DNA of 64,000 bases from a virus (IMGVR_UViG_2832576359_000003:26348-90347), one strand, 5' to 3'. Positions 9,993-64,000 are shown, counted from the first letter of the stretch. Numbers and translations are program-made. The notes: a model not told the origin generated them from the sequence alone.

Positions 9993-10049
9993 GCGATCTC
10001 TCCGTTACTTGTGTTGGTGTATGCGCGCGGCCGCGATGGAGTTACCGGG

Positions 10050-10913: not shown

Positions 10914-10949
10914 GGCGGCCACACTAGCGGTAGTCTGCACGATTCGCAA

Positions 10950-12728: not shown

Positions 12729-12779
12729 GACAAATACCCCGCGCGCTTGATGTGAATACGCGCAGGGTAGTTGCAATGT

Positions 12780-29556: not shown

Positions 29557-31344
29557 TCACGATTCACCCCCGGCGGCGCGGTCGATGGCGAGCATACGGT
29601 CCATCTGTGCCCGGACGAGCTTCGCGGCGTCTCGATTCTTGGCCGTGATGATGATGTAGTCGCCGTCTGTCCCGACGCTTTTAACCGGCGCATCGAAGCC
29701 GCGCTTAGGCGTAACGCTCGCAGGTTGAGCGGCGAGGATGTGCGTGACTACTGCGCCGTCGTGATTCGCCGCGCACTGCAATGCGTCGGCCTCGTTGATG
29801 AATACGCGATGCCAAGTCTGTTCGGCTTCGCCGGGCCATTCGACGTACCACGCCTCTTTCTGATCGCTCGTCAGCCCCACAGCGGCAGCGGGCTCGCTCG
29901 GCGCAGCACGCAGTTCAGCCGACACGAGTGCATGAAGCACGTCCACGACATTCTCGCGGCTGGTTCGATTTTTGGCTGCGTCGCTCATGTGTTCGTAGAC
30001 GTGATCCGGTAACGGCGCGCAAGGCGTATCGGTGCCTGTTGCATTGCAGGTTGGGCAGGTGGGCGCTTCCGTAGATAGGGCGGCGCGGGCCTGCCAGCCG
30101 TCCCAATGAGAATTTGTCCCGGGCCACGCATAGCCGTCCTTTTCTCGAGTCAGGAGAAATTCCAAACCGGCGTATCGCGTAACAGCCCATGCCTCGAATG
30201 CGCCACGCTCGCATGCAGACTGATCGACCATATCGGTTTCCTCGGGCTCGCTCGGCGCAGCGGGGGCGACGGTTGAAGCGGCGACGGATTTTGCATGCTG
30301 GCGAATATGGGCGCCCGCAATAATCGACTCATACGCGTAGTCTCCCCACTGACCGGGACATCCCTTCCTGTTCAGCTTGGTGAGCACGTAGTCCGCGATG
30401 AACGTCGCGTCGGCGTCGCTGGGCGCTGCACTCGCCACTACGGGGGCGCCAGTAGCTTGTTTGCGCGAAGGCGGATAGCCGGGCTTCATGCCGCGAATGA
30501 CGCGCGCATCCTCCCGCATGCCCCAGTTCTGTTCCATCTCGACCGCAGCGGCCTCAAGCAGATTATTGAGGTCGGCCGCCTGCGCATCTTCCGCCACTAC
30601 GGGGGCGACGGGAGCGGCGTCTGTGTCAACGCTTTCGCCGAGCGCGCGGCGGATCGCGCTGAATCCTGCATCGGTTGCGGCCTCGTCATCGTCCTCGACC
30701 GCATCCATGTCGTTCAGCGTATCGCCCAGATGGTTCATCGCGGCGTAGATGGCAAGCAGGTCCGCGCGCGATACGAGCACGGCGTCGGCCGGCCCCGTTG
30801 CATCTGCCCCCCGCTCCCCCTCAACAGCGGCGCACTCGGCCGGTATATCAGGGCTTGCGTTGGTCAAACTCGAAACAAGTCGAACATCGATGTGCGAGGC
30901 GTATCTGGCATTGCACATATGCAGATGAACGGCGTGGGCGTCCCATCCAATCGGGCTCACGACCCGCTTGAACCACTTCCCGCGACCGTCATACACGTCC
31001 CACAGCAGTCCAACGCCGTCATCCCACGTCGCCAAGGGCTTTTCATCTGCCCCCTCAACAGCATCGAGCCGCTCGCCCATTTCAGATAGCAGCTGCTCGA
31101 CGTCGGGCACGTTACGCGCATAGACCTCCTGTCCGCTTCCGTCGCCTGGCACGACACGCAGCAGGATTTTTCGCACGTCGCAATCGGCCGGGATCTGGGA
31201 TTTAACAGCATGGAGCAGGTCGCTAATTACCTCGCCGGCGTTGTTCGGCGTATCACGCGAGGCGATCACTCGGCACAATTCTCCGATTGTCCGGCCGCCG
31301 TAGTAGATTTTGTCGGTCATGTCTTTATCTCGCTTGTGCCCCAT
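29557..31344 (-). CDS. Large hypothetical protein (595 aa)
   Basis: Long high-GC3 ORF. CPTCNATGTDTPC and HLHMCNARYASH motifs. No family recognised. Confidence 0.45.
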   Translation of the reverse strand: MGHKRDKDMTDKIYYGGRTIGELCRVIASRDTPNNAGEVISDLLHAVKSQIPADCDVRKILLRVVPGDGSGQEVYARNVPDVEQLLSEMGERLDAVEGADEKPLATWDDGVGLLWDVYDGRGKWFKRVVSPIGWDAHAVHLHMCNARYASHIDVRLVSSLTNASPDIPAECAAVEGERGADATGPADAVLVSRADLLAIYAAMNHLGDTLNDMDAVEDDDEAATDAGFSAIRRALGESVDTDAAPVAPVVAEDAQAADLNNLLEAAAVEMEQNWGMREDARVIRGMKPGYPPSRKQATGAPVVASAAPSDADATFIADYVLTKLNRKGCPGQWGDYAYESIIAGAHIRQHAKSVAASTVAPAAPSEPEETDMVDQSACERGAFEAWAVTRYAGLEFLLTREKDGYAWPGTNSHWDGWQARAALSTEAPTCPTCNATGTDTPCAPLPDHVYEHMSDAAKNRTSRENVVDVLHALVSAELRAAPSEPAAAVGLTSDQKEAWYVEWPGEAEQTWHRVFINEADALQCAANHDGAVVTHILAAQPASVTPKRGFDAPVKSVGTDGDYIIITAKNRDAAKLVRAQMDRMLAIDRAAGGES

Positions 31345-41320: not shown

Positions 41321-41896
41321 CTATGCCGTGGCGCGCGCGCGCATGATGGTCTGGCGGCTCGTGCCGAAGTCGCGGGCCACGATGCCGATGGGCGTGCCCT
41401 CGGCCAGCCGCTCGCGCACCTGGACCTTCTGCGCCTCGGTGAGGCTTGCGCGGCGCCCGAGCTTCTTTCCCTCTTTGCGCGCCCGGTCGAGCCCCGCGTG
41501 CGTGCGCTCGATCAACAGGTCGCGCTCGAACTCTGCAACGGCCGTGATGACGCTCATCGTCATCTTGCCCGCGGCGCTCGTGAGGTCCACGCCGCCCAGG
41601 GCGAGGCAATGCACGCGCACGCCGAGGCTCGCGAGGTTCTCGACGGTCTGCCGCACGTCCATCGCGTTGCGGCCCAGCCGGTCCAGCTTCGTCACGATCA
41701 GCACGTCGCCTTCCTCGAGGCGGTCGAGCAGCTTGGCGAAGCCCGGCCGCTCGCTGGCGTTGACGCTGCCGCTGATGGTTTCGGCCACGATGCGGCGCTG
41801 GTCGACCGCGAAGCCGTGGGATTGGACCTCGGTGACCTGGTTGGCGGTCGTTTGCTCGGCGGTGCTGACCCGCGCGTAAAGGAAGGTTCGGCTCAT
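41321..41896 (-). CDS. Serine recombinase (resolvase/invertase family)
   Basis: [11 protein letters not shown] catalytic Ser block, resolvase core, C-terminal HTH ([17 protein letters not shown]). About 190 aa. Confidence 0.8.
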
Positions 41897-42027
41897 TTTC
41901 TTCGATTTCTTCACATTGACGAAATGGGTGTACGAATTCTGCCTTATACGCAGAATTACGCAACCCTATTTTTTGGACACCTTTCTTCGGGCCGTCCAGA
42001 TTCGTCCGTTATCGGCGGGGGTGCTCT

Positions 42028-43278
42028 GTGACGACCCTCCACCTGGGTGACTGCCTCGCGGTGCTCGCCGGCATGCCCGACGCCTCGTTCGATTCGATCG
42101 TCACCGATCCGCCGTACCACCTGACGAACAACGGGGGCGGCCCCGCGCGCGGCTCGGACAACGCGTACACGCGTGCGCGCGCCGGCGCCTCGTCGCGTGG
42201 CTTCATGGGCCTCGAATGGGACGGCGGTGATATCGCCTTCCGCCCGGACGTGTGGCGCGAGTGCTTGCGCGTGCTCAAGCCCGGTGGTCATCTGCTCGCG
42301 TTCTCGGCCGCGCGCACGTACCACCGGATGGCCTGCGCGATCGAGGACGCGGGCTTCGAGGTCCGCGACCAGGTCATGTGGATCTATTCGTCCGGCTTTC
42401 CAAAGTCGAAAAACCTCGACGGCGAGTGGGAGGGGTGGGGCACTGCGCTCAAGCCCGCGCACGAGCCGTTGTGCCTGGCGCGCCGGCCACTCGAGGGGAC
42501 GGTGGCCGAGAACGTCGCGCGCTATGGCGTTGGTGCTCTGAATATCGACGGTTGCCGTGTCGCGTCCGACGAGCTGGTCGCTCGCATCGAGCACGCCGAC
42601 ACCGGCGCGCAGCGTGGCTACGGCGGCGGCATACGCGGGGGCACGCGCCGATCGGCTGGCACCGATGGCCGCTGGCCCGCCAACGTCATGCACGACGGCT
42701 CCGACGCCGTTCTGGCCGCGTTCCCGTCGGCGCCCGGTCAGCAGGGGCGTGCCGTCAACGATGGGGCTGCCGCGTCGAACAGCGTCTACGGCGCGATGCG
42801 CAACGTTACGGCCGCGCCGGCGCCGCGCGTTGAAGTGGACACGTCCGCCGCGCGCTTCTTCTATTGCGCGAAGGCGTCGCGCGCGGACCGCAACGCGGGC
42901 TTGCCGTCAGGCGACGTGCCGGCGGTGTCGCAGGACTCGACGATGCGCGCTTGCGAGACAGCCGATTGGGCCGCGCGCAATGGCAACCATCACCCGACCG
43001 TCAAGCCGACATCGCTGATGCAGGAGCTTTGCCGCTTGGTCACGCCACCCGGTGGCCACGTCCTGGACCCGTTCATGGGTTCGGGATCGACTGGCCGTGG
43101 CGCCGTGCTCGAGGGGTTCGAGTTCAGCGGCATCGAGCTTTCCGCCGCATACCACGCGATCGCGCGCGCCCGGATCGACGACGCCGCGCGGGCTCGCGCA
43201 GAGCTTGTCCGCGCCGCCGCTGATGAATCCCGCGCGCGCTCGCAACTGGATCTCTTTGAGGTGCCCGATGTCGTGTGA
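42028..43278 (+). CDS. DNA methyltransferase, N6-adenine/N4-cytosine family (beta class)
   Basis: DPPY motif near the N-terminus (IVTDPPYHL) and FxGSG near the C-terminus (DPFMGSGSTG). Confidence 0.75.
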   Translation: MTTLHLGDCLAVLAGMPDASFDSIVTDPPYHLTNNGGGPARGSDNAYTRARAGASSRGFMGLEWDGGDIAFRPDVWRECLRVLKPGGHLLAFSAARTYHRMACAIEDAGFEVRDQVMWIYSSGFPKSKNLDGEWEGWGTALKPAHEPLCLARRPLEGTVAENVARYGVGALNIDGCRVASDELVARIEHADTGAQRGYGGGIRGGTRRSAGTDGRWPANVMHDGSDAVLAAFPSAPGQQGRAVNDGAAASNSVYGAMRNVTAAPAPRVEVDTSAARFFYCAKASRADRNAGLPSGDVPAVSQDSTMRACETADWAARNGNHHPTVKPTSLMQELCRLVTPPGGHVLDPFMGSGSTGRGAVLEGFEFSGIELSAAYHAIARARIDDAARARAELVRAAADESRARSQLDLFEVPDVV

Positions 43279-44640: not shown

Positions 44641-44964
44641 GTGAGAAAGGTTTTCAAGTACGAGGTCGCGCGACGCGGCCAAGAGCCTACGGTGCTCCGT
44701 CTTCCGGGGTCTGCAACGCTATCGCGCGTCGACGTGCAAGACGGCCGCTTCATGGTCTGGGGGGGCGTCCCGACCGGTTTGCCGGCTGACACCGAATTCG
44801 AGGTGTTCGTGGTCGGCACTGGCGATCCGATCCCCGACGACGTCTTCGTGTTGAACACGTTCTTCGAAGGGCCTTTGGTGTGGCACGCGTGCGTACGCAT
44901 CCTCGCCGTCCCGTCGCACCTTCACGTCGGAAAGACGCACAGCGGGGTGACGCATGGTTGCTGA
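44641..44964 (+). CDS. Hypothetical protein (107 aa, GTG start)
   Basis: GTG preceded by a GAGAGGG RBS-like sequence. The N-terminal extension of the long ORF is rejected. Confidence 0.35.
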   Translation: MRKVFKYEVARRGQEPTVLRLPGSATLSRVDVQDGRFMVWGGVPTGLPADTEFEVFVVGTGDPIPDDVFVLNTFFEGPLVWHACVRILAVPSHLHVGKTHSGVTHGC

Positions 44965-46363
44965 CCAACACGGCTTTACGTTGCGTTCGATCAGCGACCT
45001 GCTTCCGTACGCGCGGAACTCCCGCACGCATAGCGACGACCAGGTCGCGCAGCTCGCCGCGTCGATCGATGAGTTCGGGCTGGTCGGCGCGATCGTCGTG
45101 CGCGACGGCACGATCGCGAAGGGGCACGGCACGCTCGCCGCGGTGCGAAAGCTGATCGAGGCGGGGAAGGGCATCTATCCGCCGCCGGGCCGCTCGCAGG
45201 GCGCTGATGCCTATCCAAATGGCCTTGTGCCGGCGATCGATGCGTCGGGTTGGTCTGATGCGCAGTTCCGCGCGTACGTCATCGCGGACAACAAGCTCGC
45301 GCTGAACGCCGGGTGGGATCTGGACATGCTCCGGATCGAACTCGAGGAGTTGCAGACCGAAGGCTTCGATCTCTCGCTGACGGGCTTCGAGCTCGACGAG
45401 ATCAAAGACCTTCTCACGCCCGAGCAGCTCGACCCGAACGGCAAGGACCCCGATGCCATTCCAGATGTGCCGCCCGATCCGCATTCGGTGCTCGGGGATG
45501 TGTGGATCCTGGGCGCGCACCGGGTGATGTGCGGCGACTCCACGATGCTGGATTCGTGGGACACGCTGATGGCCGGCGAGATGGCCGATATCGTCTGGAC
45601 CGATCCGCCGTACAACGTCGCTTACGAGGGCGTGGCCGGCAAGATCAAGAACGACGATATGGGCGACGAGCAGTTCGCGCAATTCCTGCTTGACGTCCAC
45701 ATCGCGCTGTTCTCGATCATGAAGCCCGGTGCCGCCATCTATGTCGCGCACGCGGATTCCGAGGGCTACAACTTCCGCAGGGCGTTCAAACAAGCGGGGC
45801 TCAAGCTGGCCGGCTGCCTGATCTGGCGCAAAGACCAGTTCGTCCTTGGCCGCTCGGACTATCAGTGGATGCACGAGCCAATCCTTTACGGCTGGAAGCA
45901 GGGCGCTGGGCACCGCTGGTTTGGCGGACGCAAGCAAACCACTGTGCTCGAGTATGGCGAGGGCTCTCCGTTCGAACAGCAGGCCGACGGTCGCTGGGTC
46001 GTGCGCGTGGGGAATCAGACGTTCGTCGTCGACGGCGCCGCGAAGGTTGAGCGCATGGAGTCGTCGCTCGTGTTCCACGAAAAGCCCGCGCGCTCGGCGC
46101 TGCATCCAACCACCAAGCCAGTCGGCCTGGTCGCGAAGTTCCTGCGCAACAGCGCGCGCCACAACGACATCGTCGTCGACGCGTTCGGCGGCTCCGGATC
46201 GACGCTGATCGCGTCTGAAGAAATGGGCATGTGCGCACGCCTGATGGAGCTTGACCCCAAGTTCGTCGACGTGATCTGCCAGCGCTACTACGCATTCACC
46301 GGCCGCGTGCCGGTCAACGCTCGCACAGGCGAGGAATTCCCCGTGAAGGAGAAGCAGCAGTGA
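44954..46363 (+). CDS. ParB-like nuclease domain fused to N6/N4 DNA methyltransferase
   Basis: N-terminal ParB/Srx-like block (LLPYARNSRTHSDDQVAQLAASIDEFGLVGAIVV). MTase motifs DPPY (VWTDPPYNV), HPTTKP and GGSGST. Confidence 0.75.
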   Translation: MVADQHGFTLRSISDLLPYARNSRTHSDDQVAQLAASIDEFGLVGAIVVRDGTIAKGHGTLAAVRKLIEAGKGIYPPPGRSQGADAYPNGLVPAIDASGWSDAQFRAYVIADNKLALNAGWDLDMLRIELEELQTEGFDLSLTGFELDEIKDLLTPEQLDPNGKDPDAIPDVPPDPHSVLGDVWILGAHRVMCGDSTMLDSWDTLMAGEMADIVWTDPPYNVAYEGVAGKIKNDDMGDEQFAQFLLDVHIALFSIMKPGAAIYVAHADSEGYNFRRAFKQAGLKLAGCLIWRKDQFVLGRSDYQWMHEPILYGWKQGAGHRWFGGRKQTTVLEYGEGSPFEQQADGRWVVRVGNQTFVVDGAAKVERMESSLVFHEKPARSALHPTTKPVGLVAKFLRNSARHNDIVVDAFGGSGSTLIASEEMGMCARLMELDPKFVDVICQRYYAFTGRVPVNARTGEEFPVKEKQQ

Positions 46364-50621: not shown

Positions 50622-51752
50622 TTGATGAGTGAAAAGAAAGTGATTGCGCCGTCGATCGGCCGCAAGGTCTGGTACGTGCCGCTCGCACGCGATGGCGAGA
50701 TCAAAACGAACGACGAGGTTCAGCCGCTCGACGCCACGGTCATCTACGTGTGGTCCGACAGCATGGTCAACCTCGACGTGACGGACCATGTCGGGGCGCG
50801 CCACGTTCGCACGAGCGTCACGCTGATCCACCCCGGGGACGCCGAATTGCAATGGGGCGGCTTCGCGAAATGGATGCCCTACCAGGTCGGCCAAGCGAAC
50901 AAGGAAGATGGCCGTCGAGTCGTGGGAATCGACCCCGTCGGAAAGCTCGAGACGACGGAATCGGCGCCGCGCGGCGGCGACGCGCAGACGCGCATCGGCC
51001 CGAGCGTTGCTCGCGAGGCCATCGAGGCGCTGTTCGAGCGCGTCGACTGGAAATTTGAACAGCCGTCCGGGAGCACGTCGACGTTCGCGCATGCGTTCCT
51101 CGACGGCTTCTATCTCGCGTCCGGTCATTCGGCGTGCGTGTCGCCGGAAAATTTCAACGCTTTCATGGGGCGCAATATCGCGCTGGAACAGGCGCGCCAG
51201 AAGGTCTATGACAAGCTGTGGGAACTGGAGGACTACCTGCTGCGCGCGCGCATCAACGGGCGCTTGGGCGACATCACGTACGCGCTTGGCGAGGTGACCG
51301 TCAGAATCGACCAAGATATGCGGTGCCACATCTGGACCCCGGGCGAAGTGACGATCGATGGCAATGTGAACTGCACCGGCTCTGTGGTCGCCGCGGCCGG
51401 TACGTTGGCGCCCGAAAAGCATTCGACTGGCGTCGCGGCGCGCCCGCAAGCGCATTCCGACATGGATATCGGCGGCGCGATCGCGGCGCTGAAGGATGGC
51501 GAGCGCGTCGCGCGGCGCGGCTGGAACGGAAAGGACATGTGGCTCGCGCTGTCGCCGGGCGTGAGTGCGGTCCCTGCCGACAAGTTCTGGGCTCGGCCGA
51601 ACCGAGCCTACGCGGCGTCGACCGAATCGGGAGCGGCCGACGTGCTGCCCTCTGTGACGATGAAGACCGCGACGGGTGAGATCCTGATGGGCTGGCTCGC
51701 CTCGCAGACGGACTTGCTCGCGAACGACTGGTTCGTGCTGGAAGGGCAGTGA
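50622..51752 (+). CDS. Gp49-like domain + C-terminal DUF2829 (Tad2-like) domain protein
   Basis: Middle block FAHAFLDGFYLASGHSACVSPENFNAFMGRNIALEQARQKVYDKLWELEDYL is Gp49/66-like. C-terminal GGAIAALKDGERVARRGWNGKDMWLAL...DLLANDWFVL is the Trp-rich DUF2829 pattern. Confidence 0.45.
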   Translation: MMSEKKVIAPSIGRKVWYVPLARDGEIKTNDEVQPLDATVIYVWSDSMVNLDVTDHVGARHVRTSVTLIHPGDAELQWGGFAKWMPYQVGQANKEDGRRVVGIDPVGKLETTESAPRGGDAQTRIGPSVAREAIEALFERVDWKFEQPSGSTSTFAHAFLDGFYLASGHSACVSPENFNAFMGRNIALEQARQKVYDKLWELEDYLLRARINGRLGDITYALGEVTVRIDQDMRCHIWTPGEVTIDGNVNCTGSVVAAAGTLAPEKHSTGVAARPQAHSDMDIGGAIAALKDGERVARRGWNGKDMWLALSPGVSAVPADKFWARPNRAYAASTESGAADVLPSVTMKTATGEILMGWLASQTDLLANDWFVLEGQ

Positions 51753-53135: not shown

Positions 53136-53385
53136 GCTTGAATGCCGCGCGCGCTTCCTTGCGCGACATGTAGAGCTCGTTTTGCGAGGCGAGGACGCGA
53201 ATCTTGCCGGACAAAATCACGCAATCGAATCCGTTTTCGTCGGGCTCGCGCGTTTCGATGAGTTCGACCTTGCACACGACCTGGTGGCATTGCATGTTGA
53301 GTCCGACCGTGTAGCGCGTGCTGTTTGTGCTTTCCATTTGCGTCTCCGTTGCGTTCTCGATGGTTGAATCATGCGCATCAATCAA
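53131..53385 (-). CDS. Hypothetical protein
   Basis: 84-aa ORF. Confidence 0.3.
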   Translation of the reverse strand: MIDAHDSTIENATETQMESTNSTRYTVGLNMQCHQVVCKVELIETREPDENGFDCVILSGKIRVLASQNELYMSRKEARAAFKP

Positions 53386-53453
53386 AACACAGTCAACCGC
53401 TATTCGTGGTCGTCGTGACAGTAGCCTCGAAGCGAATTCATATGAGGCTTCGC

Positions 53454-55919
53454 ATGACCGAAATGCTCCATGCGGTAAGGCCGCGCGCTGTGCTGCTGCT
53501 CAAAGCGGTATCGAAGAAGCAGGTCTACGTGCCTGCGTACACCCGCCACGACGGCACGGTGGTGGTGGGCCACTACGCCACGGTGAATGTCGCCATCGAC
53601 CACAGCGACACGAAGGTCTTGGCGGGCCGAGGTTCGCACTCTCAACGCCAGGCGCACGCAAAACTCGCGCAGCACGACTGGTTCAACGCGATGGATCACG
53701 GGGACCGCGTGAATCTTCTGCTTCACCACGCCACGAAGATCCAAGACAAGGCATCGCGCGCGGCCGCCGTGTCAATGTGGCGAACCGCGGCGCTGGCTGG
53801 CCGCAACCCGACGCCGGCGCAGTGGCGCGCGTTCCATGCGCTCCCCAGCGATCGCAAGCTCGCGCTGCTCGACGAGGTGCGGCAGACCGGGCGCACTGAT
53901 CATCTGAACTCGCCGCCCGTGGCAGCGGACGCCGAGCATCCGAATTCGCCGGCCACGCCGACGCCAGTTCCCTCGGCCGCACCTCCGCGCGTCGTCGCGG
54001 CGGAAACGTCCGGGCCGGAATCTCGCGCGCGCGAAACCGACACGCCGAGCGACGGCGATACGAAGACGGTCGACGGCGTGACGTACGTCCTGCAGGGCGG
54101 CCGCTGGCATCGTCAGACGCCCGAGAGCGAACAGGCCGAACAGCCGGCCTCCACGCCGCCCGAGCAGCCTGTTGCGCCAACGCCCTCGGCGGCCGACCGC
54201 GATCGGCACGCCGGGGCGATGCGCGCGGTCGTTGCGCCGACATTCCCCGAGACGAGCGCCTCGAATGCAGGGTGCACGCGCCGGGTCGCCGCACTGCGTG
54301 CCATGGCCGAGGCGGGAGATGTCGACGGGATCTCGAGTTTCTCGACGTCGCGCACGCGCGCGAACTACGCCCGCGTCGACGACTACCGGGCCGCGCTGCT
54401 GGCCGCGGCGCAGAACCTGACGCCTGCCGAGGCTCAGCGCGCCGTTGAAACACCGCCGCCGGCGCCCCCGCAGCTCTCCGGCGCGAACATGCAAAACACG
54501 GCGCTGCTCGCCGCTCAACGCAAAATCAACATGCTGCACGACGCCGCGCGCGCGGCCGACCCGGTTGCAGCGATTCAGGCGATCAACACGTCCCGCGGCA
54601 ACCGGTACCTGGACGCGGCCGACAATTACAAGCGCGCGCTGCTTGCACACTTCGGCGTCGACATCGCTGGCGCGCCCGTGCCGGGCGTCAGTGCCGAAGG
54701 AGAAGCGTCGCGCGCGCCGCGAATCGTTGCGGCTCGCGAGGCACCAGCGCCGGCCGCGGCCCCGCCGCGCGAGCAGCCCGCGGAGACCGCTGTTCCCGAG
54801 GCGGAGAGCCCGCCCCCGTTGCCCGACTCACAGAACCCCGCGATCGCCGCGAACCCGCTCGGGTACTCCGAGGTCGTGCTCGGGTTCGTGCCGCGCCCCA
54901 ACGTGCCGTTGAGCGTGCGCACGAACATGCCTGGTGTGCAGTTTCCCGATCCGCGCATGGCCGAGTTGAACCGCCGGTACCTCGCGCAGCCGACCTCGCT
55001 GCAGCAGCGCGCTCGCGAATATCAGGCGGGAAATTGGGCGCCGCGCACACCTGAGGTGATCGCGGCGGAGGCAGCAGCTGCGGCCGAGCGCCAGCGCGCC
55101 GAGCAAGAGGCTATCCGGCGCGCCGCGGCGGCGGTGGAGGCGCGCCTAGGATCCATCGAACAGATCTTCCGGCCGCGCGCGGCGGTCGGTGCAAACGTCC
55201 GCGTCCTCAACTCGCACATCTCCGACGTCGATGCGCAGCGCGTGCTCGGTGTTCCGAAGGAGCAGGCTGACGTCATGTTCAAGCAGATGGTCGTCGACTA
55301 CGGCTTCGGCGTGACGTTCGCCATCACTGCGACCGCCTCGCCGGCGCAAATCGAGGTCCAGTATCACGGATCGGACGGAACATCGATCACGCGTCGATTC
55401 AAACGAGACACCGCCGGTGGCCCGCTGTCGGTGTACCACGCGTATTTCAAGGCCGGGAGCACGGGCGGCGGGTCAGGAAAACAGCTGTTCCGCAACTCGA
55501 TGGGGGTCTACAAGGCGCTCGGCGTGGCCGAGGTATCTGTGTACGCCAATATCGACGTGGGGGGCTATGCCTGGGCGAAGTTCGGTTATCTGCCGAAGAA
55601 TTGGGGAAACCTCCGCGCGACGCTGCGCAATCGCTTGTCATCGATCGCAAACGGGTCAATCTCGCGCGCGACGCAAGGGCGCCGGTCGGTGCAGTTGCCC
55701 GCACTGGATCCGTCGATCGTTGCAAAAATCAACACCGTGCTCGACAGCGACTCTCCGGAGACGCTCTGGGTTATCGCCGACATGAAGGTCGGCGAGCGCG
55801 CGGTCGGGAAGGAGCTTTTGCTCGGCACGGATTGGAACGGCGTGATGAAGCTGTCCCACGAGCGAACCATGCTAAGGTTCGCGAAGTACGTCAGTCCCGA
55901 TAGGAGTCAAGCACAGTGA
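53454..55919 (+). CDS. Large multidomain protein with GNAT-like C-terminal domain
   Basis: N-terminal LLLKAV...YTRHDGTVVVGHYA motif shared with the next gene. Pro/Ala-rich linkers. C-terminal YHAYFKAGSTGGGSGKQLFRNSMGVYKALGV resembles GNAT motif A. Confidence 0.45.
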   Translation: MTEMLHAVRPRAVLLLKAVSKKQVYVPAYTRHDGTVVVGHYATVNVAIDHSDTKVLAGRGSHSQRQAHAKLAQHDWFNAMDHGDRVNLLLHHATKIQDKASRAAAVSMWRTAALAGRNPTPAQWRAFHALPSDRKLALLDEVRQTGRTDHLNSPPVAADAEHPNSPATPTPVPSAAPPRVVAAETSGPESRARETDTPSDGDTKTVDGVTYVLQGGRWHRQTPESEQAEQPASTPPEQPVAPTPSAADRDRHAGAMRAVVAPTFPETSASNAGCTRRVAALRAMAEAGDVDGISSFSTSRTRANYARVDDYRAALLAAAQNLTPAEAQRAVETPPPAPPQLSGANMQNTALLAAQRKINMLHDAARAADPVAAIQAINTSRGNRYLDAADNYKRALLAHFGVDIAGAPVPGVSAEGEASRAPRIVAAREAPAPAAAPPREQPAETAVPEAESPPPLPDSQNPAIAANPLGYSEVVLGFVPRPNVPLSVRTNMPGVQFPDPRMAELNRRYLAQPTSLQQRAREYQAGNWAPRTPEVIAAEAAAAAERQRAEQEAIRRAAAAVEARLGSIEQIFRPRAAVGANVRVLNSHISDVDAQRVLGVPKEQADVMFKQMVVDYGFGVTFAITATASPAQIEVQYHGSDGTSITRRFKRDTAGGPLSVYHAYFKAGSTGGGSGKQLFRNSMGVYKALGVAEVSVYANIDVGGYAWAKFGYLPKNWGNLRATLRNRLSSIANGSISRATQGRRSVQLPALDPSIVAKINTVLDSDSPETLWVIADMKVGERAVGKELLLGTDWNGVMKLSHERTMLRFAKYVSPDRSQAQ

Positions 55920-57149: not shown

Positions 57150-59768
57150 GTGCAGTCTGTCGAGTGTGAGTTTCCTGAACTGTTCGAAGGGCAGGAACGC
57201 ATCGCGAGTAGCCTCGCGCGTTTCAATCTCGTGCACGGCGGCGAGCAGTGCGGCAAGAGCACGACGGCGATCGACGTCCTGCTGCTCTCGCAATTTGGCG
57301 CGCTCAACGGGTATCACGTCGCCTTCTGCGTGCCCGACGAGGCCGCTGTAACGGTCGCCAAGCGGCGCGTCTTCTCCCTCATTCACCACCTCGTCGACGG
57401 GCGTCCCGATCGGCCCCGCGTCGAACTAATCACGGGTGGCTCGATTCGCTTCGTGCGGCTCGATGACGAGCACCTTGAGCTTTGGGACCACCTCGCGCTG
57501 ATCGTCGTCGACGACGCGCAGCTCGTGCCGCGCATCGAGCCGCTCTGGTATGACGTGCTCGAACCTGCGCTCGGGCGCTCGCGCGGCTCGGCCTGGATCT
57601 TCGGAAAGCCCCGCGGCGCGCGCGACGGATTCGCGAGCCTCGCGCGGAACGCCGCCGGCGGCGTGCTATGGGCGGCATACCGCATGCCCACGGAAGAAAA
57701 CCCGTATTTCGACCGCGCGCGCCTCGAAGCGGACCGCGAGAAATTCACAGCAGACCAGTTCGCGCAGGAACGCGAGGGCGTCTTCGTCGACGTGCCGGTG
57801 GCGCTCACCGCGTCACAGTCGATCATCAAGCCTGGCGAGACGTTCCGCGAGTGGTGCATCCGGCTCGGCGAAGAAGGCCTCCACGTCGACGAAAAGCCAT
57901 TCACGCTCGACGATCGCCCGGCGATGCACTTCGTCTACGACCTGATCCCCTCGACCGCCGAAGAGGCGTTCCAGCGCATCGACGTGATCATGAAGTGCAC
58001 GCAGGTCGGGTTCACGGTGTTCGAAATGATGGCGATGCTGTATCTCGCGCTTCGCTTCGCGCCGGCGAAGATCGGCAGCTTCATGCCGTCGAAGGATCTC
58101 GCCGCCGGCAAGTCGTCGAATCGGTTCATGGGCATCGTGCGCACGATGCCGGCCGTGCACTCGATGATGACCGAGACGGCCGCCGAGCACGGCAAGTCCG
58201 GCGAGGGCAACGTCCTTACGCGGAACCTCGGCAACTCCATCTTCTATTTCCTCTGGACGTCCGGCAAGACCACGACCGAGTCGAACCCGATGGACGTGGT
58301 TTCGTTCGACGAAGTGCAGGAAATGAAGATCGCGGCGATGGAGAAAACCCGCGAGCGTATGTCGGCGTCGGCGATCCGCTACACGCTGATGGGATCCACC
58401 GCGAATTGGCCGGACGAGGATATCCACTGGTGGTTCAAGAAGGGCACGCAGTACCAATTTCACACGGACTGCCCCTCATGCCACACAGGGCAGGTTCTCG
58501 ACGATCACTTCCCCAAGTGCGTGGGCTTTGATCCCACGGCGCTGCGTTGGAACCCGCGCGAGGCCGAGGCGGGCATCGTGGGCGAGTACCGGTACCGCTG
58601 CCACGCGTGCGGCGGATGGATCGATGACCCGCAGATCGGCCGATGGATCGCGAAATTCCCAGAGGCTTCGATCCGCTCGCTCCACTTCCCACAGTTCCTG
58701 TCCCCGACGATCTCGCCGCGCGAAATGTACGAGGCGTATCGCGACGCCAAGGACATGAAGAACTTCTACAACCGGAAGCTCGGAAAGCCGTACGTCGATC
58801 CCACACAGGTTCCGGTCAACCTCGAGATGCTCGCCGCGTGCGCGGCGCTCGGGATGAAGCTCGGCGTCGTGTGGGAGGAGCGGGGCCGCGACACGTACAT
58901 GGGCATCGACCAGATGGGGCAATTTAACGCGGTCTTGATCGCGAAGCGGCTGCCGACTGGTCACATGGCGATTATCCACGCTGAGGAAGTCTACGACGCA
59001 GACCCGTTCGCGCGCTGCTCGGTGCTGCTCGAGCGCTATGGCGTGCGCGTTTGCGTCGTCGAAACGCTGCCGAACTACAACGACGCGAAGCGCTTCGCCA
59101 ACCGCCACCCGGGCATCGTGTTCCTCGCCGGCTACGGCAACATGGAAAGCGACATGCTGCGGTGGGGCGACGATCGGGCGAACCGCTCGGAGCGCCGCAC
59201 GGACGACGAGGACCGCGACCAGTACACGGTCACGCTCGACCAATACAAGTCGATGCAGGTTGCCTTCGCGCGGATCTCGAAGCTGGTTTGCGTGTTTCCT
59301 GATCCGAAGGCCCTTATCCAGGAGCTGACCGACGACGGGGACAACGGCAAGGGCGAGCGATCGTTGCGCCCGATCCTCGAGGAGCGCGTGTTTAAGCACT
59401 TCACGCGCACGGCGCTGATCGCCGAGCGCGACGAGGAGGAAAAGAAATTCCGGCGCCGCGTGGTCAAGGTCGGTATCGACCCTCACTTCTCGTACGCGTT
59501 CATGCTGCTCAACGTCGCATGGGCTCGCGCGCACGGTACGGCGTCGTTTCTATTCCCTGACGAGGCGGAGGAGGTTGAAGTGCCCCAAGGAAGCATTGCG
59601 ATCGCGCAGACGCGCGTTCTGGCGGATATCAAGCGGGAGACTGAGGAGGCGGGGGCAGAGAAGTGCGCCGGCTGCGCATCGTTCGACGAGGAGCGGGGGT
59701 GGTGCGAGGAGCGCGAGGTGCTGGTGAGGCCGAGCAGCCCCGCGTGCATCTTGTTTATGGATCGGTAG
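57150..59768 (+). CDS. Terminase large subunit (GpA family) with ~250-aa N-terminal extension carrying a second P-loop
   Basis: GpA-like Walker A KCTQVGFT near aa 283 and a Zn ribbon (CPSCHTGQ...CHACGG). Additional N-terminal Walker A GGEQCGKST and Walker B LIVVDDAQ. No stop codon over 872 aa. GTG start. Confidence 0.6.
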   Translation: MQSVECEFPELFEGQERIASSLARFNLVHGGEQCGKSTTAIDVLLLSQFGALNGYHVAFCVPDEAAVTVAKRRVFSLIHHLVDGRPDRPRVELITGGSIRFVRLDDEHLELWDHLALIVVDDAQLVPRIEPLWYDVLEPALGRSRGSAWIFGKPRGARDGFASLARNAAGGVLWAAYRMPTEENPYFDRARLEADREKFTADQFAQEREGVFVDVPVALTASQSIIKPGETFREWCIRLGEEGLHVDEKPFTLDDRPAMHFVYDLIPSTAEEAFQRIDVIMKCTQVGFTVFEMMAMLYLALRFAPAKIGSFMPSKDLAAGKSSNRFMGIVRTMPAVHSMMTETAAEHGKSGEGNVLTRNLGNSIFYFLWTSGKTTTESNPMDVVSFDEVQEMKIAAMEKTRERMSASAIRYTLMGSTANWPDEDIHWWFKKGTQYQFHTDCPSCHTGQVLDDHFPKCVGFDPTALRWNPREAEAGIVGEYRYRCHACGGWIDDPQIGRWIAKFPEASIRSLHFPQFLSPTISPREMYEAYRDAKDMKNFYNRKLGKPYVDPTQVPVNLEMLAACAALGMKLGVVWEERGRDTYMGIDQMGQFNAVLIAKRLPTGHMAIIHAEEVYDADPFARCSVLLERYGVRVCVVETLPNYNDAKRFANRHPGIVFLAGYGNMESDMLRWGDDRANRSERRTDDEDRDQYTVTLDQYKSMQVAFARISKLVCVFPDPKALIQELTDDGDNGKGERSLRPILEERVFKHFTRTALIAERDEEEKKFRRRVVKVGIDPHFSYAFMLLNVAWARAHGTASFLFPDEAEEVEVPQGSIAIAQTRVLADIKRETEEAGAEKCAGCASFDEERGWCEEREVLVRPSSPACILFMDR

Positions 59769-59771
59769 GGG

Positions 59772-60086
59772 TCATCGCCGACGGGCGGAAACTGGGCGCT
59801 TCCGCGGCTTTCTGGCATCTAGTTGCGCTTTGAGCTGTAAGTACTGATTCAGCTCCTTCGGTTCCGGGACGTCTTCCTTACGCCAGAACAGCACCTGTTG
59901 GCCTTTCCAATGCGTGCCCGTCGCCCAGAAGTCCGGGTCACCTGGCATCTTCTCCAAGACCTCCATCCTGAGTGGCTGGTCGCGGCGCCAAGGGACGCAG
60001 GCTCGCAACCGGGCTCCGGTTAGGCCGAACAAGATATCGCCTTCGCGGACAGGTTGCCCATCGAGGTATGCGAGCACGCTACCCAT
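59772..60086 (-). CDS. Hypothetical protein
   Basis: 104-aa ORF, last gene of the leftward NAD operon. Confidence 0.3.
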   Translation of the reverse strand: MGSVLAYLDGQPVREGDILFGLTGARLRACVPWRRDQPLRMEVLEKMPGDPDFWATGTHWKGQQVLFWRKEDVPEPKELNQYLQLKAQLDARKPRKRPVSARRR

Positions 60087-60104
60087 GTTGTGTCTCGTCG
60101 ATCG

Positions 60105-60308
60105 TCATGTTGCCTGTTCTCTCATCGTCTGGGTCTTCAGCAAGAAAAGCTCCCAACGAGCAATGTCCATGCGGCGTGTCCCGCGCTCGTATTCGGACCA
60201 GCGCACCGCGCTACTCAGATGCACGAGGCTCGCGGCCTTCGACTGGCTGATACGCGCCGCGCGGCGGACCGCGCGCACTTCGTCACTCGTTGGGGTCTTC
60301 AGGGTCAT
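60105..60308 (-). CDS. Short XRE-like HTH protein
   Basis: EVRAVRRAARISQSKAASLVHLSSAVRWSEYERG is HTH-like. Confidence 0.35.
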   Translation of the reverse strand: MTLKTPTSDEVRAVRRAARISQSKAASLVHLSSAVRWSEYERGTRRMDIARWELFLLKTQTMREQAT

Positions 60309-60338
60309 GTGTCGCTGCGGTGATGGACTATTGGTGCG

Positions 60339-62072
60339 TCATGGCATGATCCCGGTCCAGTCGATGCTGCCTGGCTCGGGGCACTCCCACGACATGGCAA
60401 GGCGATTGCGCATTTGCGCAAGTGTCGTCGTCCGTACCAGTTTCCCATCACGAAAGATCGGCTTAAGCGAGCCGGTATCGAACACGGTAGGGTCTTGCCG
60501 GTCGTACAGCACGTAATCGTCGTCAACGCGGCGCACGCACACCAATCCCTTCGCGGACTTCTTCGTGCCGTCGTCGGTTGCCGGATCCTTGTAAATCTCT
60601 ATCGACTCGCCGCCGACCTCGGCATAGATCGCCTTCAGCGCGAAGCCGAATGTATCGCGTGACACCATGTTGTACGTGTACGAGCCGATGCCGAAAACGA
60701 CGTTGTTCGACGCGAAGCCCTTGTCTGCCAGACGGCGCAGGATGCGCACGCCACGCTCGAGTGTGATCGAATCGCCGTAGATCAGGCCTACGTGACTGTC
60801 GAGTACCTTGAAGCCCTTGTCTGTTCCCGTGCCGCCGTAGATATCCCAGAGGCATTCGACCGCGCCCTTGCGCTCGGCAGCCGTGATCCGACGACCCATG
60901 CCTGCGCGTCCGCACGTGACATATTTTCCTTCTTCGTCGACAACCGGTTGCCCATCGTCGTCGCACATAAGCTCGTCATTTCGGTAACCCGTCAGAATCT
61001 TCACCGGGTCGCCCGAGTCGGGCCTGAACACCACCTTGCACTGGCCGAGCGCATTTGGCCGGCGCGCGAGAATCTCGTCTTTGAGCTCGCGCGCGACGAC
61101 CGTGATCGTGTTCCAGAAATCGAACGAATCGGCGACGATCGAAATCATGCCTTCGGGATAGTCCTCGGTCACAAGCTCGCGGATCACTTCCTGCTCGGCG
61201 ACGCACCGCATTTGCTTCTCGGTGAAAATCTCGTTTCCGCGCTTGCGCTTGAGAGCCGCGAGCACGCGCAGAATCCGAAGCGTCATCACGCTGTGCTCGG
61301 TCGCCGGGATCGAACCCCCGATCAGTTCCTTATCTGCGTCGGCGCCGTAGAAGTCCTCGGCATAGTCGATAGCGGGGATCGTGTCGGTGCCGGTGAATGA
61401 GAGCAAGTGACCGAGGCCGCAACGCATCGCATCGTGCACGCCGCTCATGCCGCGCATCGAGAAATCGTGGCCTTGCCAGCTAACGAAGTCCTCGGGAGCA
61501 CCCGTGAGCCGCGCGAAGTACGTGAGCAGCTTGCGGAATTCAAAGGCAATCGTCGCGACCGTCGACGGCTTCCAGTTCTCGCAGCTGAATAGCGTCTCGA
61601 AGTACGTTGCGAGCCACGAATGCTCGCCTCGGGCAATAAAGATGATCGGCGGCACCTTGATATTCACGCGAGAGCCTTCGGGGAGTGCCCGGATCTCGAG
61701 CGGCAAATATCCGAGGTCGTGCAAGGCCTCGAGCTTCGCCGTCGACACTGCATCCGGTCCGAGTGCGGTGTCCATGCGGCGCTTGAACTTGCGCACGGCC
61801 TTGGCCTTGGGAACGTCGAAGAATCGCTTCCCGAACAGGTCAATGACGAATTCCTGAATCCAGCCCTGCTGGCCGAGCCACACGACCTTTCCGTCGAACA
61901 GCTGCGGCAGGACCGGCGCGTACTTAGCCGAGCGCGGCGTGAAGTTCGCGACGAGCATGTCTAATCCGGCCGGGTACATGCCCGGGTGCCCGGTCTTGTA
62001 GAAGTCGGCGAGGTTGAACGGCACGAGGCCGTTTTGCTTCTCGAGTACGTCGTGATCGATGGGTGCGTTCAT
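60339..62072 (-). CDS. Nicotinamide phosphoribosyltransferase family protein (NadV/NAMPT; possibly Namat-like)
   Basis: N-terminal NLADFYKTGH(P)GMYP (NAMPT TDSYK-type motif), GTDT, IADSFD and FGIGS blocks typical of the NAMPT family. Confidence 0.75.
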   Translation of the reverse strand: MNAPIDHDVLEKQNGLVPFNLADFYKTGHPGMYPAGLDMLVANFTPRSAKYAPVLPQLFDGKVVWLGQQGWIQEFVIDLFGKRFFDVPKAKAVRKFKRRMDTALGPDAVSTAKLEALHDLGYLPLEIRALPEGSRVNIKVPPIIFIARGEHSWLATYFETLFSCENWKPSTVATIAFEFRKLLTYFARLTGAPEDFVSWQGHDFSMRGMSGVHDAMRCGLGHLLSFTGTDTIPAIDYAEDFYGADADKELIGGSIPATEHSVMTLRILRVLAALKRKRGNEIFTEKQMRCVAEQEVIRELVTEDYPEGMISIVADSFDFWNTITVVARELKDEILARRPNALGQCKVVFRPDSGDPVKILTGYRNDELMCDDDGQPVVDEEGKYVTCGRAGMGRRITAAERKGAVECLWDIYGGTGTDKGFKVLDSHVGLIYGDSITLERGVRILRRLADKGFASNNVVFGIGSYTYNMVSRDTFGFALKAIYAEVGGESIEIYKDPATDDGTKKSAKGLVCVRRVDDDYVLYDRQDPTVFDTGSLKPIFRDGKLVRTTTLAQMRNRLAMSWECPEPGSIDWTGIMP

Positions 62073-62092
62073 TGTTGTGTCTCTGGTTTGAG

Positions 62093-62908
62093 TTAGACCA
62101 CGGTGCAGCGATCGTCGCTGATCCAGTTGTTACGCGTGAAAACCTGCGCATATCCCTCGAGCAGCACGTCGAGTCCCTTGCTGAAAATGCCGTGTGTGAC
62201 GTAGAGGAAAAGCTGGTGGCGCGTGCCCTGCGTGTCCTGCTTAGCTTTGATGGCGCTCGCCAATTCGATAAAAGTCCGTCCACCGTCGCAGATGTCGTCG
62301 ACGACAAGCAAGGGCAATTCGGGAAGGTCGCCGAGGACCTCGGTGCCCGTGATCTGACCGGTTCGTGTGTCGCGCACCTTGTCCGCAAATACGACTTCCA
62401 GATCGAAGGCCGAGGCGAGCTTCAGGACGCGTTTGCGTGCCCCCGCATCGGGTGCCACTAGCGCGACCTTCGTGCCGATTCGGTCGATCACCGCCGAGAG
62501 AGGCAGAACCGGGTCGGCGATCTGGACACGCTCGAGCAGCGCGGGCACGACGTCGCTGTGCGGATCCTCAATGAGCACGCGGCTGTATTTCTGGGCGTTG
62601 ATCAGGTCACAAAACACCTTGGCGCTCAGCGACTCTCCCCGGTTGGCCACGCGATCCTGGCGTGCATAGGGGACATAGGGCATGTCAAGGATGATGCCGG
62701 CCGCCGGATAGGCGCGGCGCAGCGCGTCAGTGATCATGATCAGCGCCATGACGTCGGCCGAGCTTTTCAGTCCTGCGCTGATCAGCAGCCCGCGGGGCGC
62801 GACGGCGTCTGCCTGAACGGTTGCGTGGATCTCGCCACCGGGGAACGTGAGGGTCTTTACGTCGAGCTTCCTATAGCCTGTTTCGGTAACTACGGATACA
62901 TCGATCAT
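62093..62908 (-). CDS. Ribose-phosphate pyrophosphokinase-family protein (short Prs-like; possibly Adps-like)
   Basis: Prs N-terminal domain pattern and PRPP-binding loop (LLVVDDICDGGRTFIELASA). 271 aa, shorter than canonical Prs. Adjacent to the NAMPT-like gene. Confidence 0.7.
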   Translation of the reverse strand: MIDVSVVTETGYRKLDVKTLTFPGGEIHATVQADAVAPRGLLISAGLKSSADVMALIMITDALRRAYPAAGIILDMPYVPYARQDRVANRGESLSAKVFCDLINAQKYSRVLIEDPHSDVVPALLERVQIADPVLPLSAVIDRIGTKVALVAPDAGARKRVLKLASAFDLEVVFADKVRDTRTGQITGTEVLGDLPELPLLVVDDICDGGRTFIELASAIKAKQDTQGTRHQLFLYVTHGIFSKGLDVLLEGYAQVFTRNNWISDDRCTVV

Positions 62909-62923
62909 TGTTCAGTCCTGTTG

Positions 62924-63358
62924 TCAGAAGAGTTCGCCTTGAGCGGCGTTCGGGATTGCTGGTTTGATTGCTGCGGGGAGGCCTGCACGGCGTCGCGCGA
63001 TCCCCTGTACTGCCTCGCGTATCGATAGGGCTTCGCCATCCTTCAACACGCGGCGATGGCCTTCTTCTGTGCCCTTGGGGTGCTCGGGGCAGTAGTCGTA
63101 CGTGTCCCACGTTCCGGTCCGGCCCATCTTTATGTGGATGACCCCGCGACGTTCGGCGTGCTTCGTGCACAGGGGCATGTCACACGTGTGCACAAAATCC
63201 CGGCTCGGGATGCGCTCGACCTTTCCCGTCTTGATGCCGATCGCCTCGGACCGATAGCCCCTCCCCAGCACGTGGTCGCATAGCTGCGTGGCGGGGAGCG
63301 CGCAATAGAAGCAAGTCTGTTGCTGCCGTGGCATCAAAGCGCCTCGCGCCGGACCCAA
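62924..63358 (-). CDS. Hypothetical Cys/His-rich protein
   Basis: CFYCALPATQLCDHV...HTCDMPLCTKH...YCPEH suggests Zn binding. Confidence 0.3.
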   Translation of the reverse strand: MGPARGALMPRQQQTCFYCALPATQLCDHVLGRGYRSEAIGIKTGKVERIPSRDFVHTCDMPLCTKHAERRGVIHIKMGRTGTWDTYDYCPEHPKGTEEGHRRVLKDGEALSIREAVQGIARRRAGLPAAIKPAIPNAAQGELF

Positions 63359-63585
63359 TTCGCCGGATCAATGAGGCGCCCAGCTTGCAAATCAAACATC
63401 GGATCGAAAGGTCGCATGCACGACAGGCAAACGACCGGGTCGGACAGCTCTACTCGCGTGCCGTCGAGTCGCTCGAAGTCAGGGGCAAATATCCGCTCGC
63501 CCGACAGGGGAACGGCTACCCTGAAAAATGCGGGCTTCCCGCACACAGGATCGATGAAGGCGAACGGATGCGTTTCGACGCTCAT
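63334..63585 (-). CDS. Small hypothetical protein
   Basis: 83-aa ORF. Confidence 0.25.
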   Translation of the reverse strand: MSVETHPFAFIDPVCGKPAFFRVAVPLSGERIFAPDFERLDGTRVELSDPVVCLSCMRPFDPMFDLQAGRLIDPANWVRREAL

Positions 63586-63986
63586 GCCGGATCCTGGAAG
63601 AGCTTCACGGGCTTCGCATATTCGTCGAAGTGATGCTTAACGATCCGAAGCTTTCCGTCCGCCGACGCGCGCGAGCGAAGCGCGAAGCCGATGCATGCGA
63701 TGGTGTTCTGCGCTCGCTCGAGTGTTTTCCTCAGGCGTTCCTGCGCGTCGGTCGGTGCAAACAGGCGGGGCGTACCCACCTCGATAAACACCTTCCCAGC
63801 GTCCCAATCGAATCCCTCGTGGATCGAAACGACGTTTTTGGCCGGCGTGCCGCCGACCGATGCAAATCCTGGGTCAAACGGGACGACCAGCCGTGTTTCG
63901 CGGCGCGCGCGCGCGCGCGCGGCGATCGCAGCCAGGCGCTCGGACGCCTCCGCGACGCTCATTGGTGCTTGTTCGGGGCGTGACAT
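63582..63986 (-). CDS. Hypothetical protein, first visible gene of the leftward NAD operon
   Basis: 134-aa ORF with coding GC3 bias. Confidence 0.35.
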   Translation of the reverse strand: MSRPEQAPMSVAEASERLAAIAARARARRETRLVVPFDPGFASVGGTPAKNVVSIHEGFDWDAGKVFIEVGTPRLFAPTDAQERLRKTLERAQNTIACIGFALRSRASADGKLRIVKHHFDEYAKPVKLFQDPA

Positions 63987-64000
63987 TAGAAAAGGGCTCC

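Follow-up and report, generated by a model that had tools for sequence, protein, structure and literature searches.

We analyzed a 64,000-nucleotide stretch of viral DNA (IMGVR_UViG_2832576359_000003:26348-90347; hereafter the window, with positions counted from its first letter) that carries, within 59772-63986, seven tightly packed open reading frames (ORFs), all on the minus strand and either overlapping or separated by 15-30 nt. Two adjacent genes in this run encode homologs of Adps and Namat, the Prs-family and Nampt-family enzymes of the NAD+ reconstitution pathway NARP1, and we regard it as probable, from sequence comparisons, that they form a NARP1-type pair carried by a temperate Pararobbsia phage-plasmid and directed against host effectors that cleave NAD+. 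The initial annotation had described the locus as a leftward operon with neighboring NAMPT-family and short Prs-family genes, which is borne out by the ORF listing and by family matches to both enzymes that are unambiguous and far above chance. The genes of the run, from first to last, and the gene that converges on them are as follows.

63582-63986, minus strand: 134-aa ORF, matching phrog_6026, phrog_12566, and phrog_33620, all of unknown function
63334-63585, minus strand: 83-aa ORF with no Pfam, NCBIfam, or PHROG family match
62924-63334, minus strand: Cys-rich protein of 136 aa, phrog_10082 (function unknown)
62093-62908, minus strand: Adps-like (Prs-family) protein of 271 aa, a predicted ADP-ribose pyrophosphokinase of the Prs superfamily
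60339-62072, minus strand: Namat-like (NAMPT-family) protein of 577 aa, a predicted nicotinamide ADP-ribose transferase of the Nampt superfamily
60105-60308, minus strand: Aca10-family helix-turn-helix (HTH) protein of 67 aa, with a weak HTH_31 match and a match to PDB entry 7XI5
59772-60086, minus strand: 104-aa ORF, the last of the run, with no family match or significant PDB sequence match
57150-59768, plus strand: GpA-type large terminase, PF05876 (E 6e-15) and phrog_675 (303 bits)

The Adps-like gene lies upstream of the Namat-like gene, across a gap of 20 nt. The Cys-rich ORF begins with an ATG at 63334 that overlaps the preceding stop codon as TGATG, a start that yields a protein of 136 aa, matching in length the 100% identical protein named at NCBI. 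At its downstream end the operon closes 3 nt from the stop codon of the convergent terminase gene; upstream of the first ORF, only 14 nt precede the window edge, and the 5′ end of the operon and its promoter lie beyond the window. A promoter and terminator scan returned no sigma-70-like site in 59000-64000 and no excess of terminator-like matches over shuffled sequences.

To place the two enzymes, we compared them with the studied reference pairs of phages Bas63 (MZ501086, genes 79-80) and SPbetaL1, with further phage pairs from Av-05, PAK_P1, ICP1, Archie, and GH15, and with a canonical set consisting of six Prs proteins and three Nampts (Ralstonia pbeF, Klebsiella phage KP15, and Vibrio phage K571); trees were built by neighbor joining (NJ) with BLOSUM62 from 19-23 taxa and 60-100 bootstraps. 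The Adps-like protein matches Pribosyltran_N, Pribosyltran, and phrog_619 (264 bits) and lies far under the cutoff of every Prs equivalog model. It passes TIGR01251 marginally (116.8 bits, cutoff 113), whereas E. coli Prs reaches 422.7 bits and the Adps proteins of Bas63, SPbetaL1, and Av-05 reach 106-147 bits, a range that includes the window protein; with NF002320 (cutoff 297), it scores 108.7, against 74-121 for the same three Adps proteins and 533 for E. coli Prs. Its identity is 32% to Bas63 Adps and 31% to SPbetaL1 Adps.

Individual residues point the same way. Lys177, in the segment KVRDTRTGQI, aligns with K162 of SPbetaL1 Adps (equivalent to K197 of Bacillus subtilis Prs), the mutation of which abolishes activity (Osterman et al., preprint 10.1101/2024.02.11.579819), and the flexible loop pattern K-x-R-[DN]-x-x-T-G-x-I is common to the window protein and Adps but not found in Prs. 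DPHSDV replaces DLHAxQIQGFF of Prs and DDICDGGRT replaces DDxxDTxGT, and the protein lacks both the N-terminal segment of Prs and its C-terminal ~35 residues, so that, of the hallmarks of canonical class I Prs (scores above the equivalog cutoffs, the N-terminal segment, and the C-terminal regulatory region), none is present. (These motif signatures and truncations were derived in the present analysis and are not published criteria.) In the NJ tree of 23 sequences, the protein falls within a cluster of Namat-adjacent Prs homologs that is bracketed by the validated Bas63 and SPbetaL1 Adps proteins and is split from the six canonical Prs at 100% bootstrap. A Namat homolog adjoins 97% of Adps-clade members, and SPbetaL1 Adps gave no product in a Prs-type assay but did pyrophosphorylate ADP-ribose (ADPR) (Osterman et al., preprint). 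No Adps structure occurs among the PDB entries; homology predicts that the window protein likewise pyrophosphorylates ADPR rather than ribose-5-phosphate.

The Namat-like protein matches NAPRTase (PF04095, E 1e-35), NF006629 (500 bits, cutoff 405), and phrog_448 (582 bits). Its best PDB matches are 9W5X and 9W5W (444 bits), which are SPbetaL1 Namat (PMC12774641), followed at a distance by the Xcc Nampt (148 bits) and human Nampt (127 bits); a match to 9KE8 (368 bits, GVGAQTYQRNTRD), whose identity we did not find in the literature, was not used. It is 40% identical to Bas63 Namat, 40-44% identical to the validated Namats overall, and 27-29% identical to canonical Nampts, and tblastn scores across phages are bimodal, with Namat-type matches at ≥292 bits and Nampt-type matches at ≤186 bits. 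In the NJ tree, it clusters with the validated Namats, and a long branch with 100% support separates this cluster from the Ralstonia pbeF, KP15, and K571 Nampts.

The catalytic core of the Namat-like protein is fully identical to that of SPbetaL1 Namat (D23, Y25, F204, R207, D230, R350, D352, G433, D434, R472, and D473, corresponding to D13, Y15, F189, R192, D215, R306, D308, G360, D361, R399, and D400), and its catalytic histidine is His260, inside ATEHSVM. The clamp loop reads TPRSAKY (with K50-Y51), resembling TPRSDKW of Bas63, and it has the length typical of Namats, the Nampt counterpart being a short ESRGG(R/K)(Y/F); under the published criterion, this loop contributes a stacking residue, with position 3 being either Arg or a Lys/Tyr that precedes a stacking residue at position 4 (PMC12774641). 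The clamp helix, for which the published selectivity frame is GS-X-Phi-X-Phi-X-Phi-TRD (PMC12774641), reads GSYTYNMVSRD and places Tyr465 at position 3 (F392 in SPbetaL1) and Tyr467 at position 5, where Nampts have G/A and L; the Nampt-type motif GG(G/A)LLQ is not in the protein. A tblastn search (E ≤ 1) of the 64-kb window returned no NadM-type nicotinamide mononucleotide (NMN) adenylyltransferase (NMNAT), a search not specifically directed at NadR- or NadD-type NMNATs. The predicted activity, extrapolated from homologs, is a preference for ADPR-pyrophosphate (ADPR-PP), along with direct formation of NAD+.

Taken together, the clades, scores, and residues and the lack of NadM in the window place both proteins in the NARP1 families, and we are very confident that they belong to the Adps and Namat clades. 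That the pair would carry out NARP1 chemistry we consider highly likely, and we attach moderate confidence to a role in counter-defense. The initial annotation had put forward NARP1 or, alternatively, a NadV salvage route fed by phosphoribosyl pyrophosphate (PRPP). The trees, the scores in curated hidden Markov models, Lys177, the Adps loops and truncations, and the Namat clamp all argue for NARP1, including in the alignment against canonical Prs and NadV that had been proposed as a check (Adps-type loops, the missing C-terminal ~35 residues, and the clamp elements); the Adps-type features, the clamp, and the lack of a NadM-type NMNAT in the window disfavor salvage. Grouping with housekeeping Prs and NadV, which had been named as evidence against the idea, was not seen in that form: the two proteins do group with chromosomal operons (see below), but these operons fall inside the Adps and Namat clades and apart from housekeeping Prs and Nampt.

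According to this model, a host effector of the TIR, SIR2, or SEFIR type would split NAD+ into ADPR and nicotinamide. The Adps-like protein would transfer pyrophosphate from ATP to the terminal ribose of this ADPR, yielding ADPR-PP, with Lys177 as the catalytic residue of the flexible loop. The Namat-like protein, which would combine a Nampt-type core with an adenine clamp made up of K50-Y51 from the loop and Y465/Y467 from the helix, would swap the pyrophosphate for nicotinamide and release NAD+ and pyrophosphate without an NMN adenylyltransferase step. Finally, the Aca10-family HTH protein would probably repress the promoter of the cassette, as Aca proteins do in anti-defense operons, thereby limiting expression.

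The link between the HTH protein and the enzymes is apparent in related phages. The pair is linked in all 80 of the IMG/VR loci returned, side by side in most and within ~3 kb in every one, but only two of them, L106 and L107 (= L186, a 92.9-kb contig), share the phage context of the window; a third contig of the same architecture, the metagenomic L189, carries the closest Namat (75% identity). In L106, L186, and L189, the order is portal, a variable cassette of small genes on the opposite strand, HTH-Adps-Namat, and the convergent GpA terminase, and the terminase is 54-56% identical in the related contigs and lies in the same convergent arrangement. The genes that the window shares with these relatives are limited to the HTH gene (62-77%), Adps, Namat, and the terminase, plus the Cys-rich gene in the case of L106 and L186. 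Neither the 134-aa nor the 83-aa ORF has a counterpart in L106, L186, or L187, and the 104-aa ORF is not conserved in the related contigs.

In relative L187, the Cys-rich gene lies beside the terminase without HTH, Adps, or Namat, from which we conclude that this gene belongs to the backbone and that the conserved unit is the HTH-Adps-Namat trio. The Cys-rich protein was therefore rejected as a component of the module, and of the small HTH and Cys-rich proteins that had been counted in the operon, the HTH protein stands as a member of the trio and the Cys-rich protein is a backbone neighbor.

The 67-aa HTH protein aligns over residues 2-61 with residues 2-60 of PDB entry 7XI5 (phmmer E 7.8e-12), which is Aca10 of P. 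citronellolis, the repressor of an anti-CRISPR operon (PMC9410881). The DNA-binding R44 of Aca10 corresponds to R45 and G49 to A50. The HTH gene of two related phage contigs (77% and 62% identity) lies immediately upstream of Adps, whereas that of the window follows Namat. Judged by its family, the protein is a probable autorepressor of the cassette.

Bacterial chromosomes provide the nearest relatives of the pair. When one genome per species was scanned, Adps-like genes 38-66% identical to that of the window turned up at 80 loci, in Trinickia, Paraburkholderia, Chromobacterium, Duganella, nearly every Achromobacter species, and Kordia; in most of these, local tblastn detected a Namat-like gene adjoining or close to the Adps-like one, although four of the most distant loci have none within the fetched stretch. 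A gene for the Nudix and winged-helix regulator NrtR lies next to or near the pair in ~75 of the 80 loci (e.g., L010 9180-12517), none of which contains the phage neighbors of the window; the window, in turn, has no NrtR homolog anywhere. Both trees join the window pair and the Burkholderiaceae/Chromobacterium copies as sister groups at 100% bootstrap, with identities to the closest chromosomal relatives of 59-66% (Adps) and 66-71% (Namat), compared with best identities in known phages of 45% and 50%, respectively. A finer Namat tree shows the window and the closest metagenomic copy as sister (86%) to the IMG/VR phage copies and shows the phage group nested among nrtR-linked sequences, a level that the Adps tree does not resolve.

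The best "phage" match for Namat (50%) was to "Acinetobacter phage MD-2021a" (L105, CAKLQF020000015.1 49035-55513), in which prs-nadV and an NrtR-like gene are flanked by AraC, TauE, and MetH-like genes; this entry looks like bacterial chromosome filed as phage.

NrtR of the nrtR-prs-nadV operons is released from DNA by ADPR, and control of a second prs paralog by NrtR was left unexplained by the authors (Rodionov et al. 2008, PMC2330246). The chromosomal pairs nest inside the Adps and Namat clades, and nrtR-prs-nadV operons may thus be substrate-induced NARP1 pathways. A full-text literature search for NrtR together with NARP1 found no paper making this connection.

The phage-encoded status of the pair is well supported. 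The Adps-like and Cys-rich proteins are each 100% identical to proteins named for Pararobbsia silviterrae (90,347-bp contig), and the window also encodes baseplate J, a tail fiber, a lysozyme, a single-stranded DNA-binding protein, an SbcC-like protein, RecT, an exonuclease, a NinI-like phosphatase, and a small-terminase-like gene, with no obvious block of host housekeeping genes. We consider the element to be a probable temperate, myovirus-like phage-plasmid of Pararobbsia (Burkholderiaceae); TrfA and ParA genes among the phage genes make a phage-plasmid more probable than an integrated prophage. Near-identical DNA had no match in 50,697 phage records. Other features of the element are listed below.

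10050-10949, minus strand: TrfA-type replication initiator, among phage structural and recombination genes
12081-12776, minus strand: ParA ATPase, among phage structural and recombination genes
36155-38125 (minus strand), 42028-43278 (plus strand), and 44954-46363 (plus strand): three large DNA methyltransferases, including one with a fused ParB-like domain
41321-41914, minus strand: serine DNA invertase
50622-51752, plus strand: 376-aa protein with a C-terminal Tad2-like domain (PF11195)

The Tad2-like domain occupies residues 281-372 of the 376-aa protein (PF11195, 73 bits, cutoff 25) and matches SptTad2 (PDB 8wjd, E 4.7e-16) and SPO1 Tad2 (8sme, E 1.6e-7); the protein is multidomain, with a middle domain like N4 gp49/Sf6 gp66. 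This similarity suggests that the protein may be a sponge for the Thoeris signal, which would give the element a second, independent anti-Thoeris function. A PADLOC search for defense genes that the pair could offset returned only candidate PDC-M matches, to one ORF.

Several points weigh against a NARP1-type counter-defense pair. The trees are small-sample NJ trees, and some deep nodes are weak (e.g., 51% for the exclusion of a Ralstonia Prs paralog). The window proteins are just 31-32% (Adps) and 40-44% (Namat) identical to the validated proteins. Met469 occupies position 7 of the clamp helix, a site that is Tyr in the validated Namats (Y396 in SPbetaL1), and TRD reads SRD, substitutions that could weaken the preference for ADPR-PP. 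No Aca-type operator was found, the palindromes of the window being only GC-rich ones inside coding sequence (the promoter lies beyond the window); in the relatives as well, no inverted repeat is present in the portal/cassette intergenic regions or around the HTH genes. Namat yields NMN from PRPP in vitro (PMC12774641; Osterman et al. preprint), so the window enzyme may have a canonical side activity of this kind. Lastly, the nearest relatives of the pair, known from sequence, are chromosomal nrtR-linked "prs-nadV" operons, which have been interpreted since 2008 as PRPP/NMN salvage (PMC2330246).

With regard to the clamp helix, position 7 in the 120 closest homologs is mostly M, with V, C, S, F, H, L, and Y also occurring, and most of them have SRD too; the Namat of phage PAK_P1 has Cys at this position. 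The published wording for position 7 is "most often aromatic," and the loss from a single clamp mutation is <2-fold (PMC12774641), on which grounds we treat an aromatic residue there as consensus and not as a defining trait, although the Met makes the strength of the predicted ADPR-PP preference less certain.

The main rival to the counter-defense reading retains the chemistry and changes its role: the pair would be a passenger, a copy of the host-type, nrtR-regulated NAD-recycling operon that serves the lysogen or plasmid state or buffers NAD+-consuming enzymes of the phage. Such an origin is in keeping with the 80 closest genomic relatives, which are chromosomal, have nrtR in ~75 cases, and are without phage neighbors in every case, as well as with the temperate, plasmid-like nature of the element (TrfA, ParA) and with a related phage that encodes a WGR/ADP-ribosyltransferase-toxin protein and a large NUDIX protein near the same locus. 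However, the phage copies have lost nrtR and are linked instead to an Aca10-family repressor typical of anti-defense operons, the trio sits in a variable accessory cassette on an element that also encodes a Tad2-like domain, and in experiments, systems that deplete NAD+ are countered by the NARP1 pairs of three unrelated phages. We therefore judge this explanation unlikely, if worth keeping in view.

Less likely still, and in our view improbable, is canonical salvage, in which the short Prs would feed PRPP to a NadV/Nampt enzyme that forms NMN, and a host NMNAT or PncC would complete NAD+ in the manner of NARP2. Database names and the Pfam and NCBIfam matches do say Prs and NAPRTase/NadV, with TIGR01251 marginally passed, and the in vitro synthesis of NMN by Namat and the classical reading of prs-nadV operons fit this scheme. 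Set against these are the score of the Prs-like protein, ~300 bits under real Prs and within the validated Adps range; the behavior of SPbetaL1 Adps in the two assays; and the Adps-type loops and truncations, the Namat clamp residues, the 27-29% identity to Nampts, and the lack of NadM in the window. That the genes are decaying remnants without current function is highly improbable: nothing specific favors it beyond the Met at clamp position 7 as the sole unusual residue, a variant held by most of the 120 closest homologs, and both ORFs are full length, keep all catalytic residues, and have a GC content at third codon positions of 0.76-0.79, like that of their neighbors.

The window pair is a divergent, expected homolog within the NARP1 pathway, which occurs in ~4% of sequenced phages, and not a new system. 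It resembles NARP1 of Bas63, SPbetaL1, and Fado (Osterman et al. 2024, 10.1101/2024.02.11.579819; Lan et al. 2026, PMC12774641) in being phage-borne, in the order of an adjacent Prs-family gene and then a Nampt-family gene, in clade membership, and in the conservation of the catalytic Lys, the Adps loops, the Namat core, and the clamp pattern. It differs in its low identity to the validated proteins, in the Met at clamp position 7 and SRD for TRD, in its residence on a temperate Burkholderiaceae phage-plasmid with linkage to an Aca10-family HTH gene, and in having bacterial chromosomal genes, not known phages, as its nearest relatives.

Among bacterial counterparts, the nrtR-prs-nadV operons of Shewanella, Acinetobacter, Chromobacterium, and Cytophaga (PMC2330246) have the same two-gene order, and the Met-type clamp helix also occurs in the Burkholderiaceae, Chromobacterium, and Duganella copies; these operons are chromosomal and repressed by NrtR, whereas the window pair has no nrtR and lies in a phage accessory cassette. 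The pair pfAdps/pfNamat of Paenibacillus foliorum is a bacterial NARP1 that converts ADPR and nicotinamide to NAD+ and neutralizes SPARSA (PMC12774641), so bacterial-type pairs can have NARP1 chemistry, although this Firmicute pair is near SPbetaL1 (54% and 72% identity) and far from the beta-proteobacterial subclade of the window. The acrIC7-acrIC6-aca10 operon (PMC9410881) provides a parallel for the regulator, a similar small HTH protein of the dimeric type with the critical Arg kept, in a counter-defense operon on a mobile element; its cargo is Acr proteins, whereas here the cargo is NARP1 enzymes and the position of the HTH gene varies.

The NARP2 or salvage II pathway (KVP40; NadM-NadV in Ralstonia) likewise employs a Nampt-superfamily enzyme and nicotinamide to make NAD+ but requires PRPP and an NMNAT and has the GG(G/A)LLQ motif and the short loop; the tblastn search of the window returned no NadM-type NMNAT. 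On the Ralstonia solanacearum megaplasmid (L104 1359-3910), a pbeF-type Nampt 27% identical to the Namat-like protein adjoins a 346-aa "ADP-ribose pyrophosphatase" gene, read as a bifunctional NadM. Burkholderiaceae have both the classical route via NMN and the NARP1-type pair, as distinct systems. NARP3 (PnuC and NadR) was excluded, as its proteins are unrelated.

What the window adds to the known pathway is the linkage to an Aca10-type gene, the kinship with nrtR-regulated bacterial operons, and the Met-type clamp variant. If active, the pair would extend NARP1 from mostly lytic enterobacterial and Bacillus phages to temperate phage-plasmids of soil Burkholderiaceae and would show it controlled by an Aca-type regulator on an element that also has a Tad2-like sponge. 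The two together would meet Thoeris-type immunity in layers, blocking the signal and repairing the NAD+ damage. The close sequence tie to nrtR-regulated pairs is a testable bridge between phage counter-defense and ADPR-inducible NAD+ recycling in bacteria.

We further propose, tentatively and as something rather doubtful at present, that the Aca10-like HTH gene, Adps, and Namat could constitute a self-regulated mobile anti-defense cassette that this phage-plasmid lineage would have exchanged with beta-proteobacterial nrtR operons, swapping the ADPR-responsive repressor for one of the Aca type. If this is true, the widespread nrtR operons, which are core in Achromobacter and Chromobacterium, would encode a housekeeping form of NARP1 induced by its substrate and not PRPP/NMN salvage, the 2008 puzzle of NrtR control over a second prs paralog would be answered, and Namats with the Met-type clamp helix would form a functional subclass.

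Some further observations concern the neighbors and relatives of the pair. The first ~220 of the 547 positions of the profile phrog_12872 match Adps and the rest match Namat, which implies that fusions of Adps with Namat occur naturally in phages. The Cys-rich protein has ~110 representative homologs with invariant Cys/Asp columns (C11, C19, D20, C51, and C82) and an AlphaFold2 model with a mean confidence (pLDDT) of 85.6; searches of the PDB gave no fold match (best E 0.6) and no sequence match, and the protein may be an uncharacterized zinc-binding phage protein. The 134-aa ORF likewise has no PDB sequence match.

Two ORFs elsewhere in the window, of 864 aa (53325-55919, plus strand) and 595 aa (29557-31344, minus strand), have no Pfam, PHROG, or PADLOC match. 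The former holds a position equivalent to that of the very large proteins found upstream of the terminase in the relatives (L186 19094-21704 and L189 16168-20824). In one relative, a 1264-aa WGR and ADP-ribosyltransferase-toxin protein, an NAD+-consuming enzyme beside the NAD+-rebuilding cassette, is next to a 516-aa NUDIX protein, and another relative has a 1690-aa LPD1/InPase protein. In L186, a GIY-YIG/NUMOD3 homing endonuclease gene lies between Adps and Namat (9078-10004, equal to L107 8844-9770), and the cassette upstream includes an RtcB RNA ligase and NinX. The methyltransferases and serine invertase of the window amount to a heavy load of anti-restriction and phase-variation functions, reminiscent of P1-like elements.

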